A stretch of DNA of 64,000 nt from Patescibacteria group bacterium (GTDB lineage: Bacteria; Patescibacteriota; Patescibacteriia; Magasanikbacterales; UBA922). The position numbers and the translations under genes are program-made. The DNA lies in the NCBI GenBank assembly GCA_018823045.1, contig JAHJIX010000017.1:52300-116299 (forward strand), in the 5' to 3' direction. This document shows positions 4,150 through 36,016 of the stretch, in pieces (within the stretch, counting starts at the first letter, position 1; the number at the start of each line of letters is the position of its first letter). The notes under the pieces were generated by a model. That model saw nothing but the letters and a program-made list of their open reading frames with translations. It was not told the origin of the DNA and made no database searches.

Positions 4150-4232
4150 TGGTGTCAAGTGTGTACACTGAATAAAAACCTACAGAACAAATACTCTCAA
4201 TGTATTTTTGTTGCGGAACGTACATTAAACAC

Positions 4233-4250
4233 ATCATTGCGAGGTGGCGT
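4233..4250. repeat. Half-copy (one arm, CATCATTGCGAGGTGGCGT) of the nested-palindrome repeat family
   Basis: Matches the left arm of the 9212-9306 and 12500-12623 elements. No partner arm is present. Confidence 0.5.
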
Positions 4251-4296
4251 ATTACTCATGTATCAAAAAACAGCCCTATACAGGACTGTTTTTATA

Positions 4297-9211: not shown

Positions 9212-9306
9212 ACGTCATTGCGAGGTGGCGATAGCACAGCGCGGCAATCCCATGGTTTTTGCACGGAAGAATGAGATTGCTTCGTCGTGCCTCCTCGCAA
9301 TGACGT
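9212..9306. repeat. Nested-palindrome intergenic repeat element (copy B): outer arms ACGTCATTGCGAGG/CCTCGCAATGACGT, inner arms GCGGCAATCCC/GATTGCTTCG
   Basis: Direct reading: the 14-bp inverted termini are perfect and the inner inverted pair is nested. The element occupies the gap between a GT4 gene and the radical-SAM gene. Confidence 0.85.
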
Positions 9307-12499: not shown

Positions 12500-12623
12500 A
12501 CGTCATTGCGAGGTGGCGTGAGCACACCGCGGCAATCCCGTTGTTAAAGAAAAACAATTGTTTTAAGACATAAACAAAGGGATTGCTGCGCCCCGTTTTA
12601 CAAGACGGAGCTCGCAATGACGT
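12500..12623. repeat. Nested-palindrome intergenic repeat element (copy C)
   Basis: ACGTCATTGCGAGGTGGCGTGAGCACACCGCGGCAATCCC…GGGATTGCTGCGCC…GCTCGCAATGACGT. It has the same outer and inner inverted pairs as copy B, with a longer AT-rich central loop. Confidence 0.85.
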
Positions 12624-14805: not shown

Positions 14806-14882
14806 TACTGGTATCGTGTATGATCTTTATGCTTAAAAAGATTACTTCATATCACGATACGTTAACAAAACCAGAAACTTTT

Positions 14883-15677
14883 CTAGAACGTCCAGCCGGT
14901 AGACACACCTAAGCGTGTCGCACCGAAACCGGATTCTTGCGTCGGAACCATGGGCGGCTCTGTCCCTGCTGGGAAGAGACCGACCTGGGGGCGTTGCGCC
15001 ACCCACTCAGAATGACCGAAACCGACTTGAAGGCCGATCCGAAAACCAGAGTTAAACAGACGCTCAACCTGCAGCTCGCCCATGTGGGTCTGCAACAGGT
15101 CGCCCTCGATATCAGCAGTTTCATCCCAAATGAGAAGACCTCGATACCCAAGCGCAAAGCGCCAGGCATCGATTCCTCGATACTGGGTCCCGAGAAACAC
15201 CGAAGTGCCTCCGGGTTTGAAACCGTCCATGTAGGCCGGAGCCCACGCGGTCGTTCCACGTCCATACCAGTTCTCGGCTATGCGGAGGTTTAACTCCAAA
15301 CCAAGTTCCAATAAAAACGCGTTGTCACCGTTGTCTGGTGTGATCAAGGCCACGGGGGTTAACCCGAGTCCCCAATCCCACTTTTTCTCCAAAGTCTCAA
15401 CCCTCTTTACAATCTGAGGGTCGGCTTGTGGCGGGGGCGGAGGAACTGGACATGAAACGATTTCAGAGGCCGTCTGCTCGTCAGAGCAGATGCCCGTTAT
15501 GCGAACCTTCTTACCAGGCGCACACTCGTTTAGGTCAAGGACCTTTTCCAATACCTCTCCATCCGGACAGGTAAGCTTAACTTTCCAACTGTTTTGTGCG
15601 TTAACCGGGTTCAGCCCGGCACTGATCACGGCCAGCATGGCCGTGACGAAGAGCGCCTTAATGGTGCTCCTTATCAT
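14883..15677 (-). CDS. Outer-membrane beta-barrel-like protein (signal peptide, C-terminal …TGWTF)
   Basis: 264 aa. N-terminal signal peptide (MIRSTIKALFVTAMLAVISAGLNPVNA). Alternating amphipathic beta-strand pattern in the C-terminal half, ending in an aromatic residue (F) as in OMP barrels. Immediately upstream of the TSP3 gene (operon-like). GC-rich. Confidence 0.5.
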   Translation of the reverse strand: MIRSTIKALFVTAMLAVISAGLNPVNAQNSWKVKLTCPDGEVLEKVLDLNECAPGKKVRITGICSDEQTASEIVSCPVPPPPPQADPQIVKRVETLEKKWDWGLGLTPVALITPDNGDNAFLLELGLELNLRIAENWYGRGTTAWAPAYMDGFKPGGTSVFLGTQYRGIDAWRFALGYRGLLIWDETADIEGDLLQTHMGELQVERLFNSGFRIGLQVGFGHSEWVAQRPQVGLFPAGTEPPMVPTQESGFGATRLGVSTGWTF

Positions 15678-15727
15678 ACCAACCTCCTTGCCAGCCGTTT
15701 AGGTGGCGGGGTTTATGTGTTTGGTAA

Positions 15728-15770
15728 CTACAGGATTAAAGAAAGTATATTACTTTGCTTAATCCTGTAG
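15728..15770. repeat. Perfect 12-bp inverted repeat CTACAGGATTAA…TTAATCCTGTAG with a palindromic 19-bp loop, in an AT-rich spacer inside the GC-rich island
   Basis: Direct reading of both arms. No T-run follows. Confidence 0.6.
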
Positions 15771-16026
15771 TCCAAATACAATTGGTAGATATGATGTATA
15801 TTAGTTTAATACTCATCAATTGTAATGATCGATTTAGGATGTGTTAAATCCTCAATCATCATTTAACTTGTCATAAGCATAAATGATGATAGTTGGATCC
15901 TCTATACAAGAAAGTATAGAGGTTAAGGCTCATCTAATAGTTGATCTACGTTGTGGACGTAATTCAATTATATAACGATGCTATCACGCGCCTTGAGGTG
16001 AGTGTGATAGTATTTGAAGATAGAAA

Positions 16027-17227: not shown

Positions 17228-20200
17228 TTAACTAAAAGTATATACTGGTTTACCATTTTCAAATTTAATTCCTAGAACTTCACTTTGAGCAGCTCCATCT
17301 ACTTTATATAATTTTTCACCATCTGTTTCAAATGTATATCTGTTATCATCAATAAAGACATGTTTTCCTTCTGGTGTTAAATATTTAATTCCATGCCCAT
17401 CAGCAGATACGGCATATGGATTACTCTGATCTACAGGATCAAGTAAATTACCATATCTTGGATGCTCTAAATCACTGATATTATCTTTTAAATTAAAAGC
17501 ATCTCCTGAAGGATTGTTAAGAACTTCTTGTAATTTATCTACAATATGTTTAGCATCCTCACCAATAACATCTAATTTACTCAACATATCATTAGCTTCT
17601 TCAACAGTAGGTTCCATGTCAAAACCATCTATATCATCGCTTTGTTCAATATCTGAAGTAAGATCTTCTTGATATATATTAGCAGCATCTGCTTCAACAG
17701 CGTCAGAACTACCTGATATCTCTTGCAACTTTTGATCTATCTGACTAGAATCTATACTACCCTCATTTAATTTATTGTGAATATCTAGATGTTTATTAAT
17801 ATTTTCTTCCTCAACCAAGATACTCCTCCCCTTATATTCAGCATATATAGCATTACTCTCTGACTCAACTGTATATGCTATATCATGTCCCAATACTTTA
17901 TTGTTTCCTTGAGCATTTGCTATTAACCCCTTTAAGTTCATCAACTTGTCATGAGAATTAGATAAGCCATTAATTGTATCTAATCGTCCTTCTTCTATAG
18001 ATACATCTGCTACCACATCACTACTAACTTCTTGCTCACTAAACAAAGACTTATTGCTCACCTTTGGATGAAAAGCCTTTTTATTGGTATCGATAACCTC
18101 TCTACCACTACGTTCTACCGTTTTTACAGGAGCACCCTCTCCTGCTATAGCACCAGATCCACCTTTCGCATGTACACCAAGCGCATCTTCTCCTGTTTTT
18201 ATAGCTTCAGGCGTCATTGTTTTTTGCTTGATAATATCATCTACAAAATTACGTCTGTCTGTAGGTAAAGGATCTGTTACAAATCTCCCTTCTTCTACTC
18301 TTGGTGGGTTTGATCCTTTAAGTGCATCTAAACTTGTCTTAATAACCGTACCGCTTCCTGTCTTAATATGAACATCTCCAGTTTTTTTATCTGCCCAAAA
18401 TTCATAGCCAAAATCGTCAGATCCACTAGAAGCTGCTAATCCAGTTCTCTTACCTAATCCTTCAGGAAGTTTATCTAGCACCTCTCCACTACTTGCTACA
18501 CGTCGAAGTTCTGCAGCGGCTTGTTCATTATATTCTGTGGTATTCCACTTATCTACCTCTTGATAATTATCATCTGTAACATTAGCTTGTTGATTTGTTT
18601 CAACAACGGTTGTTTCTCCACCACCACGATGATATTCTTTTACGTTGTCAAATAGGTTAATTTGATTGTCTTCTGCAACAATATGGAAATGTGGGTTTCC
18701 TTTTGCGTCAAAAGCAAGCTGAATTTTAGCTCCTGGACGAAGGGTAAAGCCTCTCGCTTCAACTCCCCCACCAATCTTAATTTGCCACTCTTTTAATTGT
18801 GCTCTATACATTCCTTGAATATCTTTATCTGAATGACCATATCCTTCAAGAAGACGTTTCATCGCACGGATTTCTGCTCCACGGACATTATCTGCCCCCA
18901 CATCTATCTCAGCAGCAAGACGTTGCCCATCTGCATTCACTAAATTTTTATCATCAAAATAATTAACATTTGAGACCTTAGCCCCAATTTTTGGTAACTC
19001 TATAGCTGGTTTTAGCTCTGGCGTTGGTTCTGCTTGTTCTGGAGCATTTTTATTTTCTGTACTTCCTTCCTCTTGACTTTGAGTATTAGCAGAGTCTTGA
19101 TGTGTCTCTGCACTGCTTTGAGTTCCCCAATTCTTAGCAACCAATTCACCATCTTCATTATATACTCCTGTTTTTACAGATGCACCAGCTGTTTCACCAG
19201 CAGCAACCATTCTTACAGTATCCTTTGCCTCTTGAACTCCCCAACCAACTAATAAAGCAGCACCTGTACCTAATGTAGCACCAGCTAGTACCCCTATTGC
19301 TCTATATTTGAGCTTACTTTTTCTTTTTCGTGCATCAGCAGTTTCTAATACTTGCCCTGCATTTTTCATTGCACGCACACCGGCTTCTAAATTCATTTTT
19401 TGTTCAGGACTTTCAAGCAAAACGCCTTCTTTCTCTACCTCATATACTAACTGACGAATTTCCGTTAACAATAGTTTATCTCGCATGATCACTTGCTTTC
19501 CATCTTCATCTGCTTCCCAATACATTACTGCTGTCATTTCTTCTGGAGAAGCTGTTCCATGCAATAATCGTTTTAAGTATAATGTTTGCTGTTTTAATTC
19601 CTTCATCTCAGGATTCTCCTTACTAGGATCCAAAAATGCACGAAGATTATCTAAAACACTACTTACATGCGCTTTTTCTTCTTTTCTCTCTCCACTCAAA
19701 CGCATTCCTTCTGCCATACGATAGCCTGTGAGTGTTCCTGCAGCAGCTCCCATAGCCCCTCTATAGATCATACTATCAAACATAATAAACCCTGTTGCGG
19801 CAGCTCCTAATAGGATACTTACTCCTAAACTTTTCTTACCACCAAATGCTTGTAATACGTATTCTAATTTACTAATGACAATAGGATCAACAGTTCCATC
19901 TTCAATTTGTTTTTCTAAATCACCACTGAGACGATCCCCTTGATCGCGCATAACAAAAATAGCTTTTGCAAGTTGCAATTTTTTTGTTTCATTTCCAGCA
20001 TCTGCTCGTTCAATTAATTGATCAAGCATTTGTTGATATACTTTTCTTTCATCTGCAGTTAATTTTGCTAATTCTGTATCTAATTCTTTATTTCCTTCCT
20101 CTGTTCCTTGCACTTGTTCTGTAAGAGCGCGGAGTGTTTGTGACATAATTGCACCAGCCTGTTCTAAATGCTGTGTCATATCTAAAACACCATTATTAAA

Positions 20201-22567
20201 ATCTAAGAGCTCACTTACAATTTCTTGTTTTATTCGTTCTTCTTGTTCTGTCTTAACCGCATCTTGTCCTTTTTTAAACTTACCATTTAACCATGCATTG
20301 TTTGCAATTAAATGACGAAAAGCACCACCAACACCACCACCAGCAACAATCGTTCCTGTAGCGGCTAAACCAGTCAATGCAAAACCTCCTGCAATCAAAC
20401 CAGCTCCTGTTGCTGCACCACCAACTAATCCAATCGTTAACCCCGTTTTTATTGCTAATTGCTTCCACAGTTTCTCTTGCTTCTTTACAAATTCACCTAA
20501 ACCATGCATTCTTTCTGCTACTTTTGCACGCACGGTCTCTTCTGCAGAAATAGCATATGTTTTGGCAACAACTTCAGCAAAACGTCCTTTCCATAGTTCA
20601 ACAAATTCTGGAGACTCTCCCTCTTTTAAAATATCTTGAAATTTACTTAAAATTTCTTGTGACAAAGAACCATTAAATCCATGCTCAACAATATGAGTAT
20701 ATAATTCTTTTAATGCTGCTTGTAATTTCTTCGAATCAATTTTCTCTTTTGCTTCTTTAAGAGACAAATCAAATTCTTTTCCTTGATATTCTCTCCCAGA
20801 AACCCGTTCTTGTAATTCAGCTGTTTCTTGTCTCTTTTTTGCTTTTTCTGCTTCAACTGTAGCTTGGTTGCTAGCTTCTGTGTGTAATGCTCCAAAATGT
20901 TGTTCTTTTAATTTTTTTAATGCTGCTTTTCTATCAGTTACAGCATTTTTACGTTGTTGTGTTATTTGATCTTCCACGGACAGTGAGACATGATTATAAA
21001 CAATACTACTACTACTAGCCAAAACACCCACCAAACTTCCCCCCAATGCTTTCATGTTCTTTGCTAGAGTAATAAATGTATCAATACTATCCTTTAAATT
21101 ATTATCAGTCACCTGAGCCTTTAATGCTTCTGCTTCTATCACTAACGCATCCATTTCTGCCTCAAAATCAAACATTCCCTCTTCGATAGTGTCGGGTCTT
21201 TGTACATTTTCCCAATCATTTAGGAGCTCTTTTAAAATATCAGCAGAACGTGAATCTTTAATACCTAATACATAATCAGTTTCAGCAACAATTCCTACAG
21301 CAACACCACTTGCAGCAAGTTCGGATTCAGGAATTGGATTATGATTACTATCTACAAAATCATCACCAATCTTTTTATATAAAGTGTCACCTTTTTTTTC
21401 TACATTATCTCCAATAAGCTCTTGCTCAGCCTGTTTTTTTCTTTTTTTATCAACTTCATTCCATATATATTGATATAAAGGGTGAGAATTACTCTCTAAA
21501 GAATGAAAAATATCAATATAGACATCTTCTTCTACATGAGCTAACTGATCATTATAATCGGCAATTACTGCTGGAGATAACTTTACTTCATTTGCGTTAA
21601 AATCATTAATTGTAGGAATAATCAACTGTCTTGGAGGAGCACCTCTTCTTCCTCCACCTTGATATTTTACAGGTAAATGATGTTGTTTTAATAATGCTTC
21701 TCTTTGACGATCATTTGCATTTCTAAATTCATCACCACTTAACGTATTCCCTGCTTCATCTCTTGCAGCATTAACCAAATCACTTAAGATAGTCTTCCTA
21801 TCCTCTTCAATATTATTTTTTATCAACTTAATTTCTTTTTCAATTTGTTCTAAAATTCTTTTTGCTAAATCTTTCTTTTCTTTCACCTCTGCTGCAGCAG
21901 GAACCGCTTCAGTCCAATTAGGATCTTTTTCTAATTGAGAAGCCCCTTTTACTTCTTTTACAGCCCTTTCTAGTTCTGCAATCACATCTTGCGCTTGTGT
22001 GTGCAACGCTTCTAATTTTTTTACTCTTTCTTTTATTGCACGCTTTCCTAAATGCGCAATATTTTCCATAGATAAAATTGCCTCTGCTTCAGCAACTGTT
22101 TTTTGTACTTCAGTAATACCTGTTTGTAAAGTAATACCTTCAGCAGATAAAACACCTGTAACTTCTCCTTTTAAACTATCTAATAAATCGCGTGTTTTTT
22201 GTAAATTTTTTAATGCATCGATTATCTCTTGTCCAACTGTATATGTTTCACCACTATGGTTCAATGTATACTCTACAGCACCATTTTTTTCAGATACATT
22301 TGTATCACCTATATTATATCCAGCAGGCAATCCATCTCCTGCCTTATCAACAATATCTGGTGCATAATCAAGCTGAATTGCATCACCATCTCCTTCTAAC
22401 ACAAGAATAAATTTTCCATCTTTACTAATTCGTGCTGGTTTTGCAAGTTTCCTTTCTTGCCATGTATTTCCAATATTAACAACAACCGTTGTATCTTTTA
22501 TATATTGGCTTAGCTCCATTGGCTGTTCCTGTCCTTCTCTATTTTTAAATTTTATTTCTTGTGACAT
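17228..22567 (-). CDS. Giant (1779 aa) hypothetical protein: long coiled-coil regions interrupted by three Gly-zipper hydrophobic hairpins. No signal peptide.
   Basis: ORF track. Gly-zipper segments GLTIGLVGGAATGAGLIAGGFALTGLAATGTIVAGGGVGGAF, GVSILLGAAATGFIMFDSMIYRGAMGAAAGTLTGY, AIGVLAGATLGTGAALLVGWGV. Extensive K/E-rich heptad-like stretches. Beta-rich C-terminus. Confidence 0.6.
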   Translation of the reverse strand: MSQEIKFKNREGQEQPMELSQYIKDTTVVVNIGNTWQERKLAKPARISKDGKFILVLEGDGDAIQLDYAPDIVDKAGDGLPAGYNIGDTNVSEKNGAVEYTLNHSGETYTVGQEIIDALKNLQKTRDLLDSLKGEVTGVLSAEGITLQTGITEVQKTVAEAEAILSMENIAHLGKRAIKERVKKLEALHTQAQDVIAELERAVKEVKGASQLEKDPNWTEAVPAAAEVKEKKDLAKRILEQIEKEIKLIKNNIEEDRKTILSDLVNAARDEAGNTLSGDEFRNANDRQREALLKQHHLPVKYQGGGRRGAPPRQLIIPTINDFNANEVKLSPAVIADYNDQLAHVEEDVYIDIFHSLESNSHPLYQYIWNEVDKKRKKQAEQELIGDNVEKKGDTLYKKIGDDFVDSNHNPIPESELAASGVAVGIVAETDYVLGIKDSRSADILKELLNDWENVQRPDTIEEGMFDFEAEMDALVIEAEALKAQVTDNNLKDSIDTFITLAKNMKALGGSLVGVLASSSSIVYNHVSLSVEDQITQQRKNAVTDRKAALKKLKEQHFGALHTEASNQATVEAEKAKKRQETAELQERVSGREYQGKEFDLSLKEAKEKIDSKKLQAALKELYTHIVEHGFNGSLSQEILSKFQDILKEGESPEFVELWKGRFAEVVAKTYAISAEETVRAKVAERMHGLGEFVKKQEKLWKQLAIKTGLTIGLVGGAATGAGLIAGGFALTGLAATGTIVAGGGVGGAFRHLIANNAWLNGKFKKGQDAVKTEQEERIKQEIVSELLDFNNGVLDMTQHLEQAGAIMSQTLRALTEQVQGTEEGNKELDTELAKLTADERKVYQQMLDQLIERADAGNETKKLQLAKAIFVMRDQGDRLSGDLEKQIEDGTVDPIVISKLEYVLQAFGGKKSLGVSILLGAAATGFIMFDSMIYRGAMGAAAGTLTGYRMAEGMRLSGERKEEKAHVSSVLDNLRAFLDPSKENPEMKELKQQTLYLKRLLHGTASPEEMTAVMYWEADEDGKQVIMRDKLLLTEIRQLVYEVEKEGVLLESPEQKMNLEAGVRAMKNAGQVLETADARKRKSKLKYRAIGVLAGATLGTGAALLVGWGVQEAKDTVRMVAAGETAGASVKTGVYNEDGELVAKNWGTQSSAETHQDSANTQSQEEGSTENKNAPEQAEPTPELKPAIELPKIGAKVSNVNYFDDKNLVNADGQRLAAEIDVGADNVRGAEIRAMKRLLEGYGHSDKDIQGMYRAQLKEWQIKIGGGVEARGFTLRPGAKIQLAFDAKGNPHFHIVAEDNQINLFDNVKEYHRGGGETTVVETNQQANVTDDNYQEVDKWNTTEYNEQAAAELRRVASSGEVLDKLPEGLGKRTGLAASSGSDDFGYEFWADKKTGDVHIKTGSGTVIKTSLDALKGSNPPRVEEGRFVTDPLPTDRRNFVDDIIKQKTMTPEAIKTGEDALGVHAKGGSGAIAGEGAPVKTVERSGREVIDTNKKAFHPKVSNKSLFSEQEVSSDVVADVSIEEGRLDTINGLSNSHDKLMNLKGLIANAQGNNKVLGHDIAYTVESESNAIYAEYKGRSILVEEENINKHLDIHNKLNEGSIDSSQIDQKLQEISGSSDAVEADAANIYQEDLTSDIEQSDDIDGFDMEPTVEEANDMLSKLDVIGEDAKHIVDKLQEVLNNPSGDAFNLKDNISDLEHPRYGNLLDPVDQSNPYAVSADGHGIKYLTPEGKHVFIDDNRYTFETDGEKLYKVDGAAQSEVLGIKFENGKPVYTFS

Positions 22568-23146: not shown

Positions 23147-23288
23147 ATGTCTTTGAAGTTAGATAATAATTATATATACGATTATTTTATTGTAAACGGC
23201 TTACTATAGCATAAAAAAGCCCTTTTGTCAATTATAGCATGTTTTGGGTGATATGAACAAGCAAAAAAAGTCTGATTGTGCTTGAGGA

Positions 23289-23385
23289 TGGGATTGCTTC
23301 GTCATTCCGCTTCGCTCCATTCCTCGCAATGACGTGCTTTTATTACGTCATTGCGAGCCCTGTGAAACAAGGGCGCGGCAATCCC
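23289..23385. repeat. Nested-palindrome repeat, circularly permuted copy D (GGGATTGCTTCG…CCTCGCAATGACGT | ACGTCATTGCGAG…GCGGCAATCCC)
   Basis: The same four arm sequences as copies B/C, with outer and inner pairs swapped. It abuts the GIY-YIG gene. Confidence 0.8.
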
Positions 23386-23685
23386 TTACTTCATATCCTC
23401 AATCCATTGTTTATATAAATCCTCCCATTTAGGATTGTTTTTATTAATCAATAACTCTTTTTTTACACGCGAACCTGATTTTAACTGTTTTTCACGACTG
23501 ATTGCATCTTTTATACTGTCATATGTTTCTACATGTACCAACATATGTACATTATATTTTTTTGTAAAATGAGAACCGATTCCTTGTTTATGTTCAATAA
23601 TTCTTTTCTGTATATTTTGTGTTACTCCTACATATAATACGGTCTTTCTAAAATTTGTTAAAATATAGGTATAGTATGTATCCAT
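23386..23685 (-). CDS. GIY-YIG nuclease family protein (small YhbQ/UPF0213-like)
   Basis: 99 aa. YTYILTN…VLYVGVTQNIQKRIIEHKQG matches the GIY-x10-YIG motif with the downstream R and E. Confidence 0.7.
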   Translation of the reverse strand: MDTYYTYILTNFRKTVLYVGVTQNIQKRIIEHKQGIGSHFTKKYNVHMLVHVETYDSIKDAISREKQLKSGSRVKKELLINKNNPKWEDLYKQWIEDMK

Positions 23686-23710
23686 ATTTAATGTTTAGTG
23701 AGTTGTTGTA

Positions 23711-23757
23711 TGGGATTGCTTCGTCATTCCGCTTCGCTCCATTCCTCGCAATGACGT
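23711..23757. repeat. Half-element copy E of the repeat family (identical to first half of copy D)
   Basis: TGGGATTGCTTCGTCATTCCGCTTCGCTCCATTCCTCGCAATGACGT. It supplies the last 11 codons and the stop of the KilA-N ORF. Confidence 0.8.
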
Positions 23758-24104
23758 GGTAAAAAAAAGGGGTCGAATTCAAAAGCAATGTCTTTGTGTG
23801 CAAAAGTGCCACCATATCGACCCGCTTTTGATACGATACCTATGGCATTAACACCTTCAATCCATCGTTTTGATGTCATGACAAAATGATTTAACCCAGC
23901 CTCCATTCTAAACCCAGGGTTATTAATTTGCTCCCATAACCCCAAAAACTGCAAAGTATTTTTATTCCTTAACCAATTTTTAATGACATCATCCATTCTT
24001 TTTGCATCTTTAAATCGTGCAATATCAGTTAACGAAATAAAGTCATGCTCATTTTTAACAAAAAAATTGACATGAATATCTTTTACAATAAGATCTTGTT
24101 TCAT
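23724..24104 (-). CDS. KilA-N domain protein
   Basis: 126 aa. FISLTDIARFKDAKRMDDVIKNWLRNKNTLQFLGLWEQINNPGF resembles the KilA-N/APSES-type DNA-binding domain. The C-terminal PRHCEEWSEAE* is encoded by the repeat element. Confidence 0.5.
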   Translation of the reverse strand: MKQDLIVKDIHVNFFVKNEHDFISLTDIARFKDAKRMDDVIKNWLRNKNTLQFLGLWEQINNPGFRMEAGLNHFVMTSKRWIEGVNAIGIVSKAGRYGGTFAHKDIAFEFDPFFLPRHCEEWSEAE

Positions 24105-24184
24105 ATGCTCCTCCTTTTTTAATATCTAAAAGTCTAACCGTGTCAAATTCGACACGGTTAACTGTATTACTACATTCAGTAATA

Positions 24185-24802
24185 CTACCCAAAATGCCTT
24201 TTTTGCTTTTGCAAAACAAGTACTGCCCCAAATAGCAAACCAGCAAACAATCCAAATAGACCATTTACAACAATATTTGGACGCACTGGCCATTTTGTTA
24301 CTACTGGGCGATTAACAATTTTCATGGTGACGTCTCCCCCAACATACTCCCAACCTTTTGAGACAAGCGCATCAACGGTAGCACCCGCAAAAGCGATTGC
24401 TTGATTTTTATCTGTATTATACGCACTTACCCGCAAGACTCCTGTACCAAATACAACTGAAGATTGTACCATCTTCCCCCATGCTTTTCTTTTTTCTCTT
24501 GCACTGAGTGCATCTAATTCTAATGTATCTAAACTATACCCTGGCTGATCAATGACTTTTGCATAAAAATCATCTGTCGCAGTAATTTGTGCAAGATTTT
24601 CTCCCACACGTTCCGCTGATTTAATAACGGTATACGGGTCGACCCCATAGCGTGTTTTTGAAATAATAAGTACATCAGCATCTGCACGATATTCAAGTGG
24701 CAACACAATAGTCACCAATAAAGAAATAACCATAAACAACGCCCCCATAAGAAAAAGGAAGTTTTTTCGTTTGAGTAAGAGACGCATAGGATGATGATGC
24801 AT
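24185..24802 (-). CDS. Wzz/CpsC-like polysaccharide chain-length-determinant-type membrane protein (N- and C-terminal TM helices)
   Basis: 205 aa, two terminal TM segments flanking a soluble domain (LRVSAYNTDKNQAIAFAGATVDALV). Confidence 0.4.
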   Translation of the reverse strand: MHHHPMRLLLKRKNFLFLMGALFMVISLLVTIVLPLEYRADADVLIISKTRYGVDPYTVIKSAERVGENLAQITATDDFYAKVIDQPGYSLDTLELDALSAREKRKAWGKMVQSSVVFGTGVLRVSAYNTDKNQAIAFAGATVDALVSKGWEYVGGDVTMKIVNRPVVTKWPVRPNIVVNGLFGLFAGLLFGAVLVLQKQKRHFG

Positions 24803-24900
24803 ATACTTGTAATAAAAAATAAATGATAGATTTATAATAATATTATAGCATTTTTTTTGTTTTGATGCGAGAGGACATAGAAAAACATAATTTATCTCTC

Positions 24901-24983
24901 ACGTCATTGCGAGTGTAGCGAAGCAATCCCGCACTTTAATACCCTAAACATTGAGATTGCCGCGCTGTGCTAACGCCAGCTCG
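24901..24983. repeat. Nested-palindrome repeat copy F (variant with inner arms swapped: CGAAGCAATCCC … GATTGCCGCG)
   Basis: ACGTCATTGCGAGTGTAGCGAAGCAATCCC…GATTGCCGCGCTGTGCTAACGCCAGCTCGCAATGAC. Confidence 0.85.
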
Positions 24984-25059
24984 CAATGACATATATTTTT
25001 TTTGACAAAATAAATAATTCATGTTAATCTAAAGTTAATCTATATATAAACTTCAGAAT

Positions 25060-25287
25060 ATGCAAAAAACATACCCTATTATTGGCGTAAAAGAGTTGCG
25101 AGAAAATTTAAATTTCTATATTCAACAAATAAATGAAGGGCACAGCTTCACCATTGTAAAAAGATCAAAGCCTGTTTTTCATATAACCCCAATACAAGAA
25201 GATGAAGCATGGGAACAAGTCGCTGATTTTACACAAATCCAAACCGGTGGAGTAAACATACAAGACATCTTGTCTCGATTATCATAA
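25060..25287 (+). CDS. Phd/YefM-family antitoxin
   Basis: 75 aa. IIGVKELRENLNFYIQQINEGHSFTIVKRSKPVFHITP is the typical Phd/YefM N-terminal domain. 1-nt gap to the toxin gene. Confidence 0.7.
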   Translation: MQKTYPIIGVKELRENLNFYIQQINEGHSFTIVKRSKPVFHITPIQEDEAWEQVADFTQIQTGGVNIQDILSRLS

Positions 25288-25288
25288 T

Positions 25289-25528
25289 ATGGTCGACAAA
25301 ATAACAAAAACATTACAACGCCTCTCTCCAAAAGAAAAAAAATGGGTAAAAAATATTCTTACACAACTTAAAAAAAAAAATTTGAAACATCTTGATATAA
25401 AAAAGCTAAAAGGAAGAACTGATGTGTACAGAATAAGAAAAGGAAAAATACGTATTATGTTTCGGATGCACAAAGAAGATATCTATTTACTTGCAATAGA
25501 AAGACGTGCAGATACTACATATAACTAA
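25289..25528 (+). CDS. RelE/ParE-family toxin
   Basis: 79 aa. GRTDVYRIRKGKIRIMFRMHKEDIYLLAIERRADTTY matches the RelE/ParE core (R…YRIR-G-YRI…L-I-HR). Confidence 0.7.
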   Translation: MVDKITKTLQRLSPKEKKWVKNILTQLKKKNLKHLDIKKLKGRTDVYRIRKGKIRIMFRMHKEDIYLLAIERRADTTYN

Positions 25529-25547
25529 TATATAAGTATAAAGAACC

Positions 25548-25639
25548 ACGTCATTACGAGTGTAGCGAAGCAATCCCATTGTTTGGTGCATTAAACGATA
25601 AGATTGCCGCGCTGTGCTAACGCCAGCTCGCAATGACGT
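25548..25639. repeat. Nested-palindrome repeat copy G (same variant and orientation as copy F)
   Basis: ACGTCATTACGAGTGTAGCGAAGCAATCCC…GATTGCCGCGCTGTGCTAACGCCAGCTCGCAATGACGT. It shares ~85% identity with copy F over the shared arms and forms a direct repeat with it around the TA pair. Confidence 0.85.
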
Positions 25640-25694
25640 ATATAATAAAAAAAAGAAGAAAAGCATCTTCTTTTTTTTATCTTGAATCTAGCGA

Positions 25695-26789
25695 TTAAAT
25701 TGCAACCTTTTCCACCTCAATATCAAGCACCTCAGATCCGCGTAACACTTGAAATGTAATCGTACTTGTTCCGCTCGTTAAGATATCTTTTGCAATTGTT
25801 TGTGCGTGAAACGGACGACCTTGTACAGTCAAAATAACATCACCAATACGCAGTGTACTTTTTGCTAACTGATACGGCACAAAAGAAATATAAAATCCTT
25901 CTATTGCTGTTTGACTACCCTCTTCTGTTTGCATATATGAGACCACTTGCCCTTTTAGTGGAATTCCACTATAAGCAATCACTCCTTGATCAAATAAAGA
26001 AGCTAACTGTGTTGCCATATACCAAGAAGGAAGCAAAGTACCATCTTCGCGCATAAATCCAACAAATGCTCCACGGTCGGTAACCAGCGGCTGGTTAATC
26101 AATGCATCAATCTCTTTACCTGCATCAAGCTCTAATGCTTGTGTTTCTTGAGATAATACAATAGTATGTTGGTCAACCATTGGCACTGAAGAACCAATCG
26201 TTATCGGTGTTTCTGTATCAACGACACTCCACAAGATATTTCCAGGAGTAATTTCTTCCCAATCTGGAAAATGAACATCACCACGAAATCCTTCACCACG
26301 TAATTGTATATATAACACATCACTCATTGGATCTTGAATAACCGTTTCTACAGAAGCAATGTGTCCTTGATGATCAACCACTTCCATATATTGCTCCATA
26401 CCACGAGTGTATTGTGGAATCATCACTGTTGCCCATCCTTCATTACTCAAGACAATCGCATGCCCAAGCAAGGCATTTTTTGTATAATAGCCTCCAGATA
26501 ATTTTTCTCGTGTATCAAAAATTTGCACCATTCTTTGCGCTACTTGTTGCTGTACAAAAGAATCCAACTGTGGTGTTTCTTCTGTAACATGTGTATAATT
26601 TGAAGAAATAAATGGTTGATACATCATTGAAGGGTTTGGAACAACCCAGGCAATCGCAACCATTGTTGCCGCAAAACCACTCACAATAGCTAAAATAACA
26701 ACCATAAATACCCATGGAAGTGATTCATAGGTACGACGTAAACGAATATGACAAGCTTTTGGTGGTAAATGTGGCGGAAAATACTTCAT
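25695..26789 (-). CDS. Membrane-anchored PDZ-domain protein
   Basis: 364 aa. N-terminal TM (VFMVVILAIVSGFAATMVAIAWVV). C-terminal PDZ-like block (LRIGDVILTVQGRPFHAQTIAKDIL…ITFQVLRGSEVLDIEV). Confidence 0.45.
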   Translation of the reverse strand: MKYFPPHLPPKACHIRLRRTYESLPWVFMVVILAIVSGFAATMVAIAWVVPNPSMMYQPFISSNYTHVTEETPQLDSFVQQQVAQRMVQIFDTREKLSGGYYTKNALLGHAIVLSNEGWATVMIPQYTRGMEQYMEVVDHQGHIASVETVIQDPMSDVLYIQLRGEGFRGDVHFPDWEEITPGNILWSVVDTETPITIGSSVPMVDQHTIVLSQETQALELDAGKEIDALINQPLVTDRGAFVGFMREDGTLLPSWYMATQLASLFDQGVIAYSGIPLKGQVVSYMQTEEGSQTAIEGFYISFVPYQLAKSTLRIGDVILTVQGRPFHAQTIAKDILTSGTSTITFQVLRGSEVLDIEVEKVAI

Positions 26790-28342: not shown

Positions 28343-28760
28343 GGGGATGACAGGCTTCGATAGACGGCAACGTTATCTATGTATGCATACCAAGAGTGTC
28401 ATCTCTTGTAAATCAATGACAAATCGATACGTGTAAACGTTATCAGTCGAGTAAAAGGCGCTATTGCTAACGCATTTAGCATGCCACAACTCGCATCTGT
28501 TGTTGCCTAAATAAGGCTAAACGACCATCGCCATGAAGATACTCGCTATTCATATCCGCGGTGTCAACCATACAGAGTTCGTCTCTGTGAGCGAGCGTAG
28601 AATATATGTGCTGACTGACGCGTATATTTGAACTTCCATCAGTATGTAGTGTGTTTCTTTTTGATATTTTTAAAAAAGCACATGAACCAACAAAATATCT
28701 ATGTATGTAGAGTACCTAGCTAACCCGATCTAGACCCGGGTTCAATTCCCGGCATCTCCA
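28343..28760 (+). ncRNA. ssrA: tmRNA (ssrA)
   Basis: 5' end GGGGAUGACAGGCUUCGAUAGACGG matches the tmRNA 5' consensus (GGGGxUGA…GGxUUCGA…ACGG). 3' end GACCCGGGUUCAAUUCCCGGCAUCUCCA has a T-arm and an acceptor 3' strand complementary to the 5' GGGGAUG, with the G3·U pair. It lies immediately downstream of smpB. A candidate tag frame ends …GCA UCU GUU GUU GCC UAA-A-UAA (28496-28512). Confidence 0.75.
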
Positions 28761-28785
28761 CGAAAAATGGCGCTAGCTATTTTTC

Positions 28786-29002: not shown

Positions 29003-29260
29003 ATGTATATTATCTATTTTCTAGAGTCTATCCAAGATAATACAAGACATTATATTGGATATACAACAAATCTAACACAACGCATAAAAACACATAACAA
29101 CGGTTCTGTTTCTTCAACAAAAAGATATAGACCCTGGAAAATAATCTATGCAGAAGCATATATACACCAACAAGATGCACGTGGAAGAGAAAAATTCCTT
29201 AAAAGTGGATCTGGATGGAAATACTTAAAAAAACAGCTAACACATCACTTTAACACTTAG
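29003..29260 (+). CDS. GIY-YIG nuclease family protein (second small YhbQ-like paralog)
   Basis: 85 aa. MYIIYFLESIQDNTRHYIGYTTNLTQRIKTHN (GIY…YIG, R, E/H). Strong SD AAGGAGG 8 nt upstream. Confidence 0.7.
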   Translation: MYIIYFLESIQDNTRHYIGYTTNLTQRIKTHNNGSVSSTKRYRPWKIIYAEAYIHQQDARGREKFLKSGSGWKYLKKQLTHHFNT

Positions 29261-31222: not shown

Positions 31223-31296
31223 GGATCGGTAGTTCAACTGGTTAGAGCACCGCCCTGTCACGGCGGAAGTTGCGGGTTCGAGTCCCGTCCGGTCCG
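31223..31296 (+). tRNA. tRNA-Asp (anticodon GUC)
   Basis: Cloverleaf: acceptor GGATCGG/CCGGTCC; D-arm GTTCAACTGGTTAGAGC; anticodon loop CTGTCAC; T-arm GCGGGTTCGAGTCCCGT; discriminator G. CCA is not encoded. Confidence 0.85.
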
Positions 31297-32847
31297 CTCA
31301 ACGGAAGGCAAAGCACCCGAAAGGGTGTTTTTTGCTTTTGTTAAGCTATTTTCTGAAGTTCTAAAGCTTGTATTACGTTTCATTATCATTTCGAACGGTT
31401 TTCTATACTCTATAACTAATTTCTTATCGATAAGCTGACAGTTCGAAAGTAAATATCCAAGTAGCTCCCTTTTCTCTTCATCATTAGCCATACGGTATAA
31501 TTTAGAAGCCTTATGAGCTAATTCTAATATACCTGAACCATAACGATAATAATCAATATCAGCTTGCGTATAATTTGAAATACGACTATCTAAATCTGTT
31601 ACCTGCTCCGTATACTCATTAAATTTTCTATTATAAAAATCCTCAGTAATATTATTATCTAACTTATCCTCATAAAGTCTATCGAGACGTGTCATTAGTT
31701 TTATCTTTCTATCCTCTAATCGTTTACGTTCTCTATCCGTTGTATCACGTTTAATATCCAATGAATCTTTTAATGCTTCGGTAATATAGTCAACGGTATC
31801 TTTTGGCAATTCAATATCTTTTAATGCTTGCTCTATCTGCTCGTTAATAGCATTCTCATTAACTGGCTTTTGTGAACACTCACTCTTATATTTTGTACAA
31901 CGATAATAAACATACTCCTTACCTGAACTCTTTGTTTTCTTATCTCCCGTAACAGTTCTATGACACTCTCCACACTCAAGTAACCCTTTAAATGTAAAGT
32001 GCCTAGTCCCCCATTTGGCTTGCTTTCCTCTATTTTCTCGACTATCCAGTATATCTTGTACATTCTTCCATAATACTTTATTGATAATCGGCTCATGTAC
32101 TCCTACATGAATTTTATCTTTCCAAATGAAATCACCGTAATAAATAGGATTACGTAAAATCCTTTGAACAGAGCTTTTACTTATTTTTTTTAGTTTAGAG
32201 CTTCTCGGAAAATTTTCAGGTATAACAATACCCTCCTTATACAATTCATCAATAAGACTCTTCAAAGAATATCTACCAGTAGCAAATCTCTCAAACATAG
32301 CTATTACTAAATCTCTATTCAATTCATCTACTACAGGACCCGCCTTATCGGCTATCTTCCCCATCTTGTAACCTAACGGGGGCATACTACAAGGATATAT
32401 TCCCTGCTCTGCTTTTTGTTTGAGTCCTTTCTTTACTTCTTCACTCAAATTATCTACATAGTTTTTTGCCATCAAGACCTTAATTCCATGCATGAACTTT
32501 TGATGAGAAGAGGCTTCTTTTCCAATAACTTCATTTTCTTTAACCAAAAAAACCGTAACATCAAGCTCGTCTATCAAAACGTAATCTTTAAAGTTACGGT
32601 ATAGTCTATCCGTCTTTTCGACAAGAATTGTATTTACATCTTTGTGTGACTTTACATAGTCCACCATTGCCCCAAAATTGCTCCTACCGGAACTTTTAGC
32701 CGTCTCATCGTCCTCAAACTCCTGTACTATACTAAAGCCATTCTGACGTGCAAATTCTTTAAGTAACTTCCTCTGAGCAGGTATTGAATACCCCTCTTGT
32801 TTTTGTTCACGAGAAGATACACGTACGTAAATGACGGCTTTTTTCAT
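31258..32847 (-). CDS. Large serine recombinase (resolvase domain + recombinase domain + zinc ribbon)
   Basis: 529 aa. Begins [12 protein letters not shown]…GYSIPAQ (catalytic Ser motif) and has a Cys-rich zinc ribbon (CGECHRTV…[11 protein letters not shown]). The ORF's last ~13 codons overlap tRNA-Asp (31258-31296), so the real stop may differ. Confidence 0.75.
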
Positions 32848-33023
32848 ACTTTAGTCTTCTCTAAAAAATCAGCAAAATCTTCTGTGGAAATCCTAAACTC
32901 CTTACCTAACTTATTAGCTTTTAGCTTACCCGCTTCTATATATCTATAAACTGTCATCTTTGAAATTCTTAATTTGCTTGCTATTTCTTCAACTAAATAA
33001 AAATCTTTATCTATTTCTTTCAT
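32844..33023 (-). CDS. Small helix-turn-helix DNA-binding protein (excisionase/AlpA-like), overlapping recombinase start by 4 nt
   Basis: Manual translation: [59 protein letters not shown] (59 aa). HTH is EIASKLRISKMTVYRYIEAG. Below the ORF-track size cut-off. Confidence 0.55.
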   Translation of the reverse strand: MKEIDKDFYLVEEIASKLRISKMTVYRYIEAGKLKANKLGKEFRISTEDFADFLEKTKV

Positions 33024-33031
33024 AAACTAAA

Positions 33032-33955
33032 TTAAGTAGATAAAACTTTCTCAATTTTTTTTGCTATAGCTCGTATTACAGGTACAGCAACACTATTCCC
33101 AAATTGTTTATAACACTGTACATTACTAACAGTTAATACAAAATCTTTGGGAAATCCTTGTAGTCGAGAAGCTTCTCTTGGAGTAATCTTTCGAGGATTT
33201 TTATTTTTTTGTCTAATCAAAATTTCAGAACCATCTTTATAATACCTAGCTGACATAGTACTTGTATATGCAGAATTGGCATCAAATAGACTATATCCAA
33301 ATCCATTACCCTTTAATTTATGAGCTTCCTTTCTTCTTTTATGACCTGCCCACAATTTATCTGATATTGTATATTTTTCATCAACTTTTTCTTCTAAAAT
33401 ATCTCCTAATTTAACTTTTTTGTATGAAGGAGTTGGAAAAACAAATTCGTTATAATTTTTTACTTTCTTTTTATTAAATGCAATTATATATATTCTCTCT
33501 CTATTTTGAGGTACACCGAAGTCTTTAGCATTAAATATCTTATCAAAAACATGATAATCTAGTTTTTCTAAACTTTCTTTTACTATCTTAAAGGTATTCC
33601 CCTTATCATGTGATTTAAACCCTTTAACATTTTCTAAAAAAACTAGCTCAGGTTTATGATAAGCAATTATTTTTTCAATATAAAAAAACAATGTCCCTCT
33701 AGTATCTTGAAAGCCCTTTTTAAGACCAGCATTAGAAAAAGGCTGACAAGGAAATCCCGCAAGAATTATATTATGTTTAGGTATATCAGCAACCTTAATT
33801 TTAGTTATATCTCCATCGGGACACTCACCAAAGTTATCTTTATATGTTTGTTGAGAAAACTTATCCCACTCAGAAGTAAATACACAGTTATAACCAATTT
33901 CATCAAATGGAATTCTAATTCCACCAATGCCTGCAAATAAATCAATAAATTTCAT
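33032..33955 (-). CDS. DNA (cytosine-5)-methyltransferase
   Basis: Motif I DLFAGIGG, motif IV GFPCQPFS, motif VI ENVKG, motif VIII QNRERIYII. The start is taken at the Met of MKFIDLFAGIGG (the ORF-track frame extends to 34012). Confidence 0.8.
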   Translation of the reverse strand: MKFIDLFAGIGGIRIPFDEIGYNCVFTSEWDKFSQQTYKDNFGECPDGDITKIKVADIPKHNIILAGFPCQPFSNAGLKKGFQDTRGTLFFYIEKIIAYHKPELVFLENVKGFKSHDKGNTFKIVKESLEKLDYHVFDKIFNAKDFGVPQNRERIYIIAFNKKKVKNYNEFVFPTPSYKKVKLGDILEEKVDEKYTISDKLWAGHKRRKEAHKLKGNGFGYSLFDANSAYTSTMSARYYKDGSEILIRQKNKNPRKITPREASRLQGFPKDFVLTVSNVQCYKQFGNSVAVPVIRAIAKKIEKVLST

Positions 33956-33959
33956 ATTT

Positions 33960-34847
33960 TTATTTCCAATAATCAAGATATTTAGGAATTTCTTCAAAGA
34001 AATATTCTTCAAAACTAATTATATTTTTGCAGTCCAACAAACTGTCACTATCTGCCAATTCTTTTGAAGTCACAATAACTATATTATGCATACCCATTTC
34101 TTTTGCTTTACTACCCGCAATATGAGTATCAACCGTTAATAAATGAATTTCAGGTATTTTTGTACGTTCAATTTCTTCTGCTACTTCCTGCCATCTTTCT
34201 CTAAGACTTGTTTTCATCGTCCCTATAATAGTTTTGTTTCTTCTTCGCTTGAATTCTTCTATACTTGGTAAAACAGAATCAACTTTTTTACCAAGTCCCA
34301 CAGACTCAAACACCTTTCTTCCAACTTTTCCTTGAGAATCAAATGGATAATCTAAAATATCATATATTTTATATATAATAGCTTCAAATGTTCTACCTGA
34401 CCTCGATCTTCGTGAATTAGTATTACTTAAAGAAAGCATATATACATATGGAGCAACTCGTCCAGCATATTCTCCACATACACTATAGATAGCAACCTTT
34501 AATTCTTCACCCGTCTTATTAACAATCTCACTAGTAACTAAAAAGTCTAAAATTTTCTTAGGTGTTTCAATTCTTTTATGTAAATCCTTTAAAAGTGTTG
34601 CATTAAACTCTGCCTCCTCTTTCAAAAATAAATTATAAGCACGCTCTCTTACCTCTAATATTACCTTAGACACATCTTTATGCTCTATGATCTCTTTTGA
34701 ATAATTACCTTCATCAAAAACCTGAGCAACAAATTCATCAGATGTTCTTATAGATTCTTTTCTTGTCTTTTTTATTAAATTAGCAAATATTTCCTTCTCT
34801 GATTCAGGAACATCAATCAAACTCCTAATATCCTTATTTACATCCAT
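33960..34847 (-). CDS. Putative type II restriction endonuclease partner of the m5C MTase
   Basis: 295-aa ORF immediately upstream and co-directional with the MTase (gap of a few nt). No recognisable family motif by eye. The call rests on the R-M context only. Confidence 0.4.
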   Translation of the reverse strand: MDVNKDIRSLIDVPESEKEIFANLIKKTRKESIRTSDEFVAQVFDEGNYSKEIIEHKDVSKVILEVRERAYNLFLKEEAEFNATLLKDLHKRIETPKKILDFLVTSEIVNKTGEELKVAIYSVCGEYAGRVAPYVYMLSLSNTNSRRSRSGRTFEAIIYKIYDILDYPFDSQGKVGRKVFESVGLGKKVDSVLPSIEEFKRRRNKTIIGTMKTSLRERWQEVAEEIERTKIPEIHLLTVDTHIAGSKAKEMGMHNIVIVTSKELADSDSLLDCKNIISFEEYFFEEIPKYLDYWK

Positions 34848-34927
34848 ACTTATATTTATAAAACTTATTGATACAATATTATAATATCTACTATATCATA
34901 CTTTACAATGGTTAACAATTAGTCCTA

Positions 34928-36016
34928 TCAATCCATCCTTTGAGCTACAAATTTTAAGAGCTCTTCCTTACTCAAAGAAGCAACATTTACTCTAGTAAGG
35001 TTATTAAATGAAATTTCTTGTATTATTCTTGCCTGTTTTAGTGAGTCAATATGTCCATACCCATAACTTCCAAAAGTGGTACCAACATTTTCATGACCCA
35101 AATTTTGACTAAAAGCTTTCTTTTGTATTTCAGTAAGTGGTAATTTAGATATTTCACTCACCAACAAATTTCTAAAGGTATGAGGATGAAAATATGTTAC
35201 TCCTGCCTGCTTAAATCGCTTTTCAAATATCTTTCTCAAAGAAGTAGTACTCTTCCAAAACGTAGCTTCCACTTCCCCATTACTATAAAATCCTAAATTT
35301 TTTTTACCTACTTCTGTTTTTGTTGCAGGGAAAATAGGATCAACAGGTTTAAAACCTTTCTGCACCTCAAGATATTCTACCCATTCCATAAAATACTTTT
35401 GTGCTTTTTTGTATGGAATAGGTACAAAAACGGAAGTTATCCTTTTACTGAACTTTGTTTTTACACCCAACTTAGGATTTTGATCGATAATCATAGTCTT
35501 TTTATCAAAACACTGCAAAGACAAACTAGCTAATGCTGAGATACGTATCCCCGTTAATAAATTAAGAGAAATAAGTGCTTTATCTCGCATTTCAACTTCT
35601 GTATTACCCTCAATATGCTCTATCACCGTTTTTACTTGATCAATTGATGGAAAACTAGTATTAGTGCTTTGTGTAGCTATTCTATTTTCTGCCTTTGTGA
35701 GATTAAGATATTCTACATCTTGCTCATGTACCTTTGATTTATATCCATCTTGTTTAGACAACCACACAAAAAAAGATTTCAAATATCTTATATTATTATA
35801 GCAATAAGATAAACTCACATTACCTTCACCATGTTTCTTTTTTTTTGATTTCAACCAACTTTTGAAATCAATAGCTTTTTGTTTATTAAATAAAGCAAAA
35901 TCATCTTGAACTGAGAACTCTTCCCAAAGCCAAATTCCTTTCTCATAACATCTAATCGATTTTGTTGAATACTGCTTTGCATTTTCAAGATATACATAAA
36001 AACTTCTTATTGTCAA
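34928..36016 (-). CDS. Tyrosine-type site-specific recombinase/integrase
   Basis: 362 aa. Box I R (ALISLNLLTGIRISALASL), HxxR (HPHTFRNLLVS) and the catalytic Tyr region (GHENVGTTFGSYGY). Confidence 0.75.
   Translation of the reverse strand: MTIRSFYVYLENAKQYSTKSIRCYEKGIWLWEEFSVQDDFALFNKQKAIDFKSWLKSKKKKHGEGNVSLSYCYNNIRYLKSFFVWLSKQDGYKSKVHEQDVEYLNLTKAENRIATQSTNTSFPSIDQVKTVIEHIEGNTEVEMRDKALISLNLLTGIRISALASLSLQCFDKKTMIIDQNPKLGVKTKFSKRITSVFVPIPYKKAQKYFMEWVEYLEVQKGFKPVDPIFPATKTEVGKKNLGFYSNGEVEATFWKSTTSLRKIFEKRFKQAGVTYFHPHTFRNLLVSEISKLPLTEIQKKAFSQNLGHENVGTTFGSYGYGHIDSLKQARIIQEISFNNLTRVNVASLSKEELLKFVAQRMD

Follow-up and report, generated by a model that had tools for sequence, protein, structure and literature searches.

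The DNA analysed here is a 64,000-nt stretch of a Patescibacteria group bacterium (assembly GCA_018823045.1, contig JAHJIX010000017.1, positions 52,300 to 116,299; hereafter the window), in which a Phd/YefM–RelE/ParE toxin–antitoxin (TA) operon lies between two same-orientation copies, F and G, of an imperfectly palindromic repeat. We consider it likely that F and G are inverted doublets of SRMs, the hairpin repeats that accompany the Ssn family of GIY-YIG nucleases, that the TA operon is a separate module with its own promoter, and that the F–TA–G block is a secondary insertion between a PDZ gene and a Wzz gene. The best explanation of the repeats themselves is that they are gene-less members of a family whose gene-bearing member, element E, encodes a predicted Ssn-type GIY-YIG nuclease; judged from sequence, we would file the repeats as an SRM variant and the 99-aa product of element E as a member of the Ssn family.

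The reference point for this assignment is SsnA, a 94-aa single-domain GIY-YIG protein that binds the Neisseria hairpin repeat NTS (CGTCATTCCCGCG...GCGGGAATC; Chenal et al. 2025, Nat Commun 16:2388, PMC11893778). SsnA binds only single-stranded DNA (ssDNA), and only one of the two strands; it cleaves ssDNA only, a few nucleotides upstream of the hairpin, and does not bind RNA. Three bases before the palindrome are required for cutting and the C after the palindrome for binding. SRMs were found in the flanks of 71% of ssnA homologs and on both sides of 42%, NTS/SRM repeats cluster around particular genes, and an NTS–gene–NTS configuration reduces transformation in SsnA-expressing cells (PMC11893778).

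F and G are closely related doublets around a self-contained operon

The two copies, at 24900–24996 and 25547–25643, start 647 nt apart and share 86% identity across 97 nt, and their asymmetric arms point the same way, confirming the bracketing of the operon by same-orientation repeats that had been noticed from the sequence beforehand. Each copy is an imperfect palindrome of ~92 nt; the end of F, previously placed at 24983, lies at 24992 (CTCGCAATGACAT). Copies carry 13-nt terminal inverted repeats, and the outer ends of F and G are perfectly complementary to each other over 13 nt (inverted repeat I10). Little extra DNA is enclosed: 67 nt separate F from the antitoxin ATG and 19 nt separate the toxin stop codon from G. 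Folding as ssDNA gives −9.0 kcal/mol for the minus-strand arm of F and −8.9 kcal/mol for that of G, like the canonical Neisseria NTS folded for comparison (−8.9 kcal/mol), and the plus-strand arms reach −3.1 and −1.7 kcal/mol, respectively. Among all copies F and G are each other's closest relatives, with a private 5′-arm variant in common and an identical well-formed arm, and are therefore sister copies. The differences between them are concentrated in the loop, at 12 of 24 positions, versus 2 of 68 positions in the arms (Fisher p 5e-7).

The Phd/YefM–RelE/ParE identity first proposed for the 25060–25528 operon holds up, both through family profiles (Table 1) and through conservation of the pair: in 78 of the 80 related loci, which are metagenomic, the toxin homolog is preceded by an antitoxin homolog. 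The toxin homologs (n=73) are 46–63% identical; some have a precomputed PF05016 match and one is named RelE/ParE by NCBI. As adjoining small genes with family signatures, separated by 1 nt, the two qualify as a type II TA pair, the toxicity being predicted. A direct repeat, GTTAATCT-N3-GTTAATCT at 25023–25041, lies between a TTGACA box and the antitoxin start codon and is probably the antitoxin operator; similar repeats are found upstream of homologous TA pairs. The segment 25002–25059 would then be the operon's own promoter, although a consensus promoter scan made no call there. Downstream of G, an AT-rich perfect palindrome probably serves as a terminator in both directions, for TA operon and PDZ gene alike; a terminator scan left it uncalled, its stem having no G–C pairs. 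The TA operon is probably a separate, self-promoted selfish module, in the hairpin–gene–hairpin configuration typical of the Ssn system.

Table 1. Repeat copies, TA operon and associated features, in window coordinates
Feature	Coordinates	Strand	Remarks
Truncated single-arm fragment (ACATCATTGCGAGGTGGCGTA...)	4231..4251	+	Aligns with the beginning of the well-conserved arm in B and C
Gene-less doublet B	9212..9306	.	Between GT4 glycosyltransferase and radical-SAM genes; ssDNA fold −26.3 kcal/mol, z −4.9
Gene-less doublet C	12500..12623	.	Between Wzy_C-like gene and GC-rich stretch; ssDNA fold −36.9 kcal/mol, z −8.5
Solo arm D	23290..23335	-	Identical to the upstream arm of ssn element E, 9 nt away from E
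Gene-bearing element E	23345..23757	-	Arm 23345–23388; ORF 23386–23685 (minus); second arm 23712–23757
KilA-N domain ORF	23724..24104	-	Pfam KilA-N E 3.8e-12; directly upstream of the nuclease gene
Hairpin doublet F	24901..24992	.	Plus-strand arm 24902–24929 weak; minus-strand arm 24954–24991 a well-formed stem-loop
Putative TA promoter/operator region	25002..25059	+	TTGACA 25002–25007; direct repeat 25023–25041; from sequence reading and upstream regions of homologous loci
Phd/YefM-family antitoxin, 75 aa	25060..25287	+	Pfam PF02604 (PhdYeFM) E 1.6e-6; TIGR01552 26.2 bits vs cutoff 20.8
RelE/ParE-family toxin, 79 aa	25289..25528	+	Pfam ParE_toxin weak, E 0.008
Hairpin doublet G	25548..25639	.	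Plus-strand arm 25549–25576 degenerate (ATTAC for ATTGC); minus-strand arm 25601–25638 well formed
AT-rich perfect palindrome	25645..25680	.	15-nt arms, flanking T/A runs; inverted repeat I8

Each arm is a stem-loop of its own

A copy consists of two hairpins, each built as (C/T)GTC-ATTGC...GCAAT-C and together making up an inverted doublet; the GTC and the trailing C are conserved across phyla. In short copies, arms with an altered ATTGC also have an altered, matching GCAAT, and the other arm stays consensus. We counted ATTTC/GAAAT in 12 arms, ACTGC/GCAGT in 9, ATTCC/GGAAT in 6, ATTAC/GTAAT in 4 and ATCGC/GCGAT in 3, drawn from at least 14 genomes, with the caveat that a script chose the best-pairing candidate, which inflates these counts. 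By our estimate a compensating 5-mer in the right context would occur by chance in ~1% of arms, versus about two thirds observed. One arm variant in L021 pairs only via G–T wobbles (ATTGT/GTAAT). Because the compensating changes fall inside one arm, each arm is its own stem-loop, and the folding of a whole 90-nt copy into one long hairpin with the gene in its loop is rejected.

Within the window, the repeat family is confined to the envelope polysaccharide region

With one mismatch allowed, the window has 12 occurrences of the terminal 11-mer GTCATTGCGAG against an expectation of 0.72, and none of 100 shuffles reached 12. All copies fall within the 4–26 kb envelope polysaccharide region; the first 26 kb encodes glycosyltransferases, a Wzy_C-like protein, a radical-SAM enzyme, a Wzz-like protein and large repeat proteins. 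No copy is present in 26–64 kb, which carries SmpB, tmRNA, IF3, L20, PPDK, pyruvate kinase, FtsZ, FtsA and a tRNA-Asp island, so that an equal density of repeats around housekeeping genes, which would have spoken against an association with accessory cargo, is not seen. Copies occur in both orientations relative to neighbouring genes, and target-site duplications are missing from all five complete copies. Rfam returned no match to the repeats at gathering thresholds across the whole window, nor at E up to 10 in 23200–25750. Element E is located 1.2 kb from F–TA–G, and a ...TAAAC-AT... stretch is common to the loops of the gene-less copies and the 5′ UTR (untranslated region) of the element E ORF.

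The KilA-N ORF next to element E takes its last ~11 codons and stop codon from a hairpin arm of that element (...PRHCEEWSEAE*). The ORF is absent from the relative L165, and in L174 a RhuM-family gene is found at the equivalent position upstream of the nuclease gene.

The gene-bearing member encodes a single-domain GIY-YIG protein with hairpins on both sides

The element E product (99 aa) matches Pfam GIY-YIG with E 9.7e-15 over residues 4–73 and has no other convincing domain; the nearest solved structures are the UPF0213 single-domain GIY-YIG proteins 1zg2 and 1ywl. Homologs with 46–60% identity are found in nearly every bacterial phylum. Among 80 loci with homologs of 46–58% identity, about 45 have GTCATTGCGAG (at most one mismatch) 50–120 nt upstream of the ORF and its reverse complement CTCGCAATGAC 15–90 nt downstream, and the motif reaches a density of 0.48/kb in the GIY-YIG loci versus 0.0066/kb in 304 kb of control loci, those of the TA homologs. 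Distances from left to right terminus are bimodal, 44–148 nt without an ORF and 322–578 nt with a GIY-YIG ORF; across the 80 loci and the window no terminus pair is spaced 700–2500 nt apart. At no fewer than eight loci the GIY-YIG ORF instead lies between a pair of complete short copies in direct orientation; the one upstream ends ~70–100 nt before the start codon and the one downstream begins ~10–25 nt after the stop, the same hairpin–ORF–hairpin geometry as that of F–TA–G. In some loci (L006, L068) left termini form tandem arrays with a spacing of 22–26 nt.

A second small GIY-YIG gene lies at 29003–29260 of the window, between the tmRNA gene and infC. Its 85-aa product has a weak T5orf172 match and shares 44% identity with the Ssn-type protein across 55 aa; the distant relative L084 has a GIY-YIG gene at the same position, and neither hairpin motif type is found near the 29003–29260 gene.

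The features common to the window family and the Ssn/SRM system concern both enzyme and repeats. The window protein and SsnA are both single-domain GIY-YIG proteins of ~95–100 aa with hairpins on both sides; in both systems a (C/T)GTC tag stands 5′ of a palindrome starting AT and a C follows the palindrome immediately; and in both there are many gene-less copies around envelope or surface genes, as well as hairpin–gene–hairpin configurations. The published SRM pattern matches at other GIY-YIG homolog loci (L027, L033, L053, L056, L063, L071, L073), and proteins 47–55% identical to the window protein are flanked directly by canonical NTS-like hairpins, including TGTCATTCCCGCGCAAGCGGGAATCC (L027 and others); one such locus belongs to a Saccharibacteria genome. 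Since canonical SRMs flank homologs this similar, the window protein can be tied indirectly to the Ssn family.

The repeats differ from published SRMs in several respects. Their arms are longer (28–44 nt), with an outer stem of only 5–6 bp (ATTGC/GCAAT) and a variable inner stem or loop, and the published pattern admits neither their stem composition nor their long interior; the copies are inverted doublets of ~90–125 nt; the host is a Patescibacteria (CPR) genome; and the cargo between the two doublets is a type II TA operon.

Some observations weigh against the assignment as we have drawn it. The published pattern, HGTCWYN(0-2)YYVSBRHN(0-5)WNVSBRGN(0-2)RNCYNB, has no match in the window and matches at 12 of 80 GIY-YIG loci, and because of this the SRM assignment draws on shared features and protein homology instead of the published definition. 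As their plus-strand arms form poor hairpins, F and G may each have one non-functional half. In addition, L165, the closest informative relative for the history of the insertion, is already quite diverged, its PDZ protein being 43% identical to that of the window.

The F–TA–G block is an insertion that has since been rearranged in a relative

The gene string SmpB–membrane protein–PDZ–Wzz is kept in distant relatives. The PDZ–Wzz gap measures 45 bp in L083 and 54 bp in L084 and holds neither TA genes nor a repeat; F–TA–G is therefore an insertion of ~840 bp, antisense to the gene string. A Candidatus Magasanikbacteria locus, L165, was reached via the GIY-YIG homolog P0002, having been missed by a word-indexed search with the PDZ protein. 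Its GIY-YIG and Wzz proteins are 83% and 72% identical to those of the window, respectively. At the same site L165 has a 67-aa ORF whose C-terminal 28 aa are 57% identical to the antitoxin C-terminus, followed after 5 nt by a solo hairpin arm 84% identical to the well-formed arm of G; there is no toxin. The antitoxin-plus-arm block aligns plus/plus with the window and the flanking genes plus/minus, and the block is therefore inverted relative to its neighbours. This arrangement is seen in several independent assemblies.

Since remnant and arm are found together at the L165 site, the association of module and hairpin there predates the split of the two lineages, and the module has since then been inverted and has suffered a deletion ending at a hairpin. 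The L165 arm is conserved amid intergenic DNA that cannot be aligned, from which it follows that the arms are constrained however they arose. The sequence-only reading had suggested that the module could be moved or deleted by recombination between its flanking repeats. Part of this stands, in that the repeats coincide with rearrangement in L165, where an inverted and partly deleted version ends at an arm; mobility of the unit does not, as it was never seen at a second site, exact-protein look-ups of toxin and antitoxin having returned three near-identical contigs with the same context in all.

Is the TA operon the cargo of a mobile cassette?

A different origin would be a mobile cassette, comparable in function to an integron cassette or to a MITE (miniature inverted-repeat transposable element) with a captured gene, in which F–TA–G, or one doublet plus the TA operon, moves between hairpin sites, either by recombination between doublets or through Ssn cuts on ssDNA that release a ~647-nt hairpin-plus-cargo piece able to re-enter another hairpin. 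The absence of the block from the PDZ–Wzz spacer in L083 and L084 and its opposite orientation in L165 would both fit such a cassette, as would the GIY-YIG gene itself, which occurs with the same hairpin–ORF–hairpin geometry in at least eight genomes and in a different genomic context in L174. The authors of the Ssn paper themselves likened NTS–ssnA–NTS to an insertion sequence (PMC11893778).

Other repeat copies do enclose small cargo, a point for which a check had been proposed: element E encloses the GIY-YIG gene, and in L079 (Marinospirillum insulare) the gene of an AbiEii toxin (Pfam E 4e-32) and that of a 211-aa partner upstream of it, at 1000–2800, lie between hairpin clusters that are 74 nt and 13 nt from the ends of the pair. 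This second bracketed TA pair adjoins an Ssn-type gene, and 15 terminal-motif matches occur within 6 kb. Elsewhere, the genes between hairpins also include ordinary glycosyltransferase, methyltransferase, NeuB-like and CooC-like genes and an HsdS gene, and the presence of such ordinary genes tells against the cassette. The HsdS case is the type I restriction specificity subunit gene at L065 1625–2908 (Lacinutrix venerupis; Methylase_S E 4e-41), in which hairpin-derived sequence is translated in the N-terminal region (...RNRHCERSEAISS...) and solo hairpin termini lie inside the gene.

Against the cassette, the repeat motif is absent from 79 of the 80 loci with TA homologs, and in the remaining locus it lies ~1.4 kb from the pair; there is no general link between the TA family and the repeat, and TA pairs without flanking repeats, the observation named in advance as telling against a cassette, are thus what is largely found. 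Also against it are the missing target-site duplications, the want of any single terminus pair around cargo of 700–2500 nt, and the restriction of the unit to one site. Nor does the neighbourhood of F and G carry weight: when five complete copies were placed at random in 20–60 intergenic gaps, at least one adjacent pair arose in 30–72% of trials, and the adjacency of two copies by itself is statistically unremarkable. GIY-YIG enzymes are nucleases that are not known to transfer strands or to ligate, which also counts against such an origin. Of the original cassette proposal, then, there remain the insertion relative to L083 and L084, the rearrangement in L165 and the AbiE pair in L079; the motif-free TA loci, the missing target-site duplications and the missing second site do not agree with it, and overall we consider a mobile cassette unlikely.

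The bracket might instead be a by-product of insertion, had the TA operon inserted beside a doublet already present between PDZ and Wzz and duplicated ~100 nt of target to give F and G. Two TA homologs lend this some substance, being flanked by 39–42-nt direct duplications that repeat the last or first part of a neighbouring gene at ~92% identity (L089, ~560–600 and 1125–1165; L092, ~1000–1040 and 1592–1635), which suggests that the TA family inserts with target duplication, and the sister relationship of F and G with their private arm variant would be expected as well. Weaker cases of flanking duplication were noted in L106, L139 and L154. Such duplications are, however, present in only ~5 of 63 testable TA loci, and all are shorter than F and G. 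The boundaries of the repeat, moreover, are the element's own termini, as in B, C and E, and not arbitrary target positions, and for this reason we favour copying of the element itself over target duplication. The concentration of F/G differences in the loop would not be predicted by a target duplication unless the arms were separately constrained; this argument is weakened by the L165 arm, which indicates that arms are constrained in any case, so that the diverged loops attest to no more than an old duplication. We judge a target duplication to be quite improbable.

That the hairpins act at the RNA level, as terminators, mRNA stabilisers or structured non-coding RNA regulating the TA operon, is highly improbable: G does lie in the 3′ UTR of the TA transcript ahead of the terminator-like palindrome, the copies fold well as single strands and the L021 arm variant pairs by wobbles alone, but F is upstream of the TA promoter, copies are turned either way with respect to the genes beside them, conservation across phyla extends to specific bases and not merely to structure, no Rfam family was found even at E up to 10, and the published enzyme does not bind RNA (PMC11893778).

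Comparison with other repeat systems

The SRM assignment can be set against other families of short palindromic repeats. CGTC-tagged REPs, among them Neisseria dRS3 and Rickettsia RPE-4/6, have a CGTC or TGTC tag, a stem starting AT and a short C-rich tail, and are mostly intergenic and mostly inverted dimers; no transposase was found associated with them, and no enzyme was linked to them there (Di Nocera et al. 2013, PMC3733652). The window repeats have the tag, the AT-start stem, the short C-rich tail, the mostly intergenic position and the inverted-dimer arrangement in common with these REPs, which differ in having 8–9-bp stems and 4–5-nt loops where the window arms have a short outer stem and a long interior.

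The REP/REPIN–RAYT system offers a likeness in organisation: inverted doublets of short intergenic hairpins, a single-copy enzyme gene flanked by the same hairpins, and recognition of the hairpins on ssDNA. It differs in its enzyme, an HUH tyrosine (Y1) transposase where the window has a GIY-YIG nuclease, and in its terminal tag (GTAG for RAYT-linked REPs). With a GIY-YIG gene as the one that the repeats enclose (not every window ORF was scanned for RAYT), we do not place the window repeats in this class.

With integron attC sites and MITE-captured genes the locus has in common a small accessory module with structured repeats of imperfect palindromic form at its borders, and TA modules are common integron cargo. 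An integron cassette is rejected on several grounds: the block adjoins neither an integrase nor an attI, the repeats have no attC core and no Rfam match, and the TA operon has its own promoter region. The genes adjoining the block are Wzz-like, PDZ, KilA-N and GIY-YIG, and the only recombinases found are 6–10 kb away, in the tRNA-Asp island. A MITE is likewise rejected, as no target-site duplication is present at the five copies and the gene-bearing relative encodes a GIY-YIG nuclease and no transposase. The earlier suggestion that the repeats are attC-like or MITE termini was therefore given up. A search of the literature on the terminal sequence, on COG2827/YhbQ/UPF0213 and on GIY-YIG proteins in connection with MITEs or REPs found nothing relevant.

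Proposed mechanism

We propose that one doublet was copied locally so as to stand on either side of the module, or was duplicated on the module's arrival, giving F and G; selection or gene conversion would since have preserved the arms, with drift in the loops. If it acts as SsnA does, the resident nuclease would recognise well-formed arms on ssDNA; as the well-formed arms of F and G are on the minus strand, cuts would be expected just right of 24991 and 25638. In any single strand carrying the locus and cut at both doublets, the TA genes would be separated from the flanking homology, as in the Neisseria analogy, and under the published model this separation would lead to less allelic replacement by transformation. 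The quasi-palindromic doublets may in addition be hot spots for inversion and deletion of the kind seen in L165, which short inverted or direct homologies, such as the 13-nt I10 between the outer ends of F and G, could underlie.

A bolder possibility, which we regard as distinctly unlikely, is that Ssn nucleases and hairpin doublets together form a cassette-exchange system acting on ssDNA that would traffic defence and addiction modules, such as the Phd–RelE pair and the AbiE pair of L079, with neither integrase nor transposase. Cuts just outside two same-orientation doublets would in that case free a hairpin-plus-gene unit, here of 647 nt with the TA operon, and the freed unit could enter other hairpin sites as a copy, be inverted there or be lost from them.

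Other features of the window

Immediately after doublet C the GC content rises, reaching 0.49–0.55 in 12600–16000 compared with ~0.35 elsewhere. This stretch, which encodes a 639-aa thrombospondin type 3 repeat protein (12886–14805) and a 264-aa protein without a Pfam match, looks like foreign DNA from its composition. The region 31223–36016 is a probable integrated island at tRNA-Asp (31223–31297), to judge from its gene content: a large serine recombinase (31258–32847) whose ORF overlaps the tRNA gene, a tyrosine integrase (34928–36016), an HTH_17 protein, a Dcm-type methylase and an EcoRII-C nuclease, at a low GC content of 0.31–0.32. Two giant ORFs are found on the minus strand, 17228–22567 (1779 aa) and 53399–63961 (3520 aa), the former syntenic with giant proteins of 2250–2806 aa in relatives. 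The tmRNA gene (28343–28763; Rfam 96.6 bits) adjoins smpB, and ARAGORN gives AIANAFSMPQLASVVA as its tag peptide.

Significance

The Ssn system is a recent find, described in 2025. The present locus provides a Patescibacteria example in which the nuclease gene, a solo arm and gene-less doublets occur in one neighbourhood, and it is a fresh example of a known hairpin–gene–hairpin arrangement, not a new kind of gene cassette; in annotation, such repeats should not be labelled attC sites or MITEs. The ATTGC...GCAAT hairpin type with its long interior is missed by the published pattern, yet it flanks over half of the nearest homologs, from many phyla, and pattern-based surveys therefore probably undercount the Ssn system. 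The TA module between the doublets, inverted and partly deleted at the hairpins in a relative, bears on whether such repeats shape the turnover of accessory genes.

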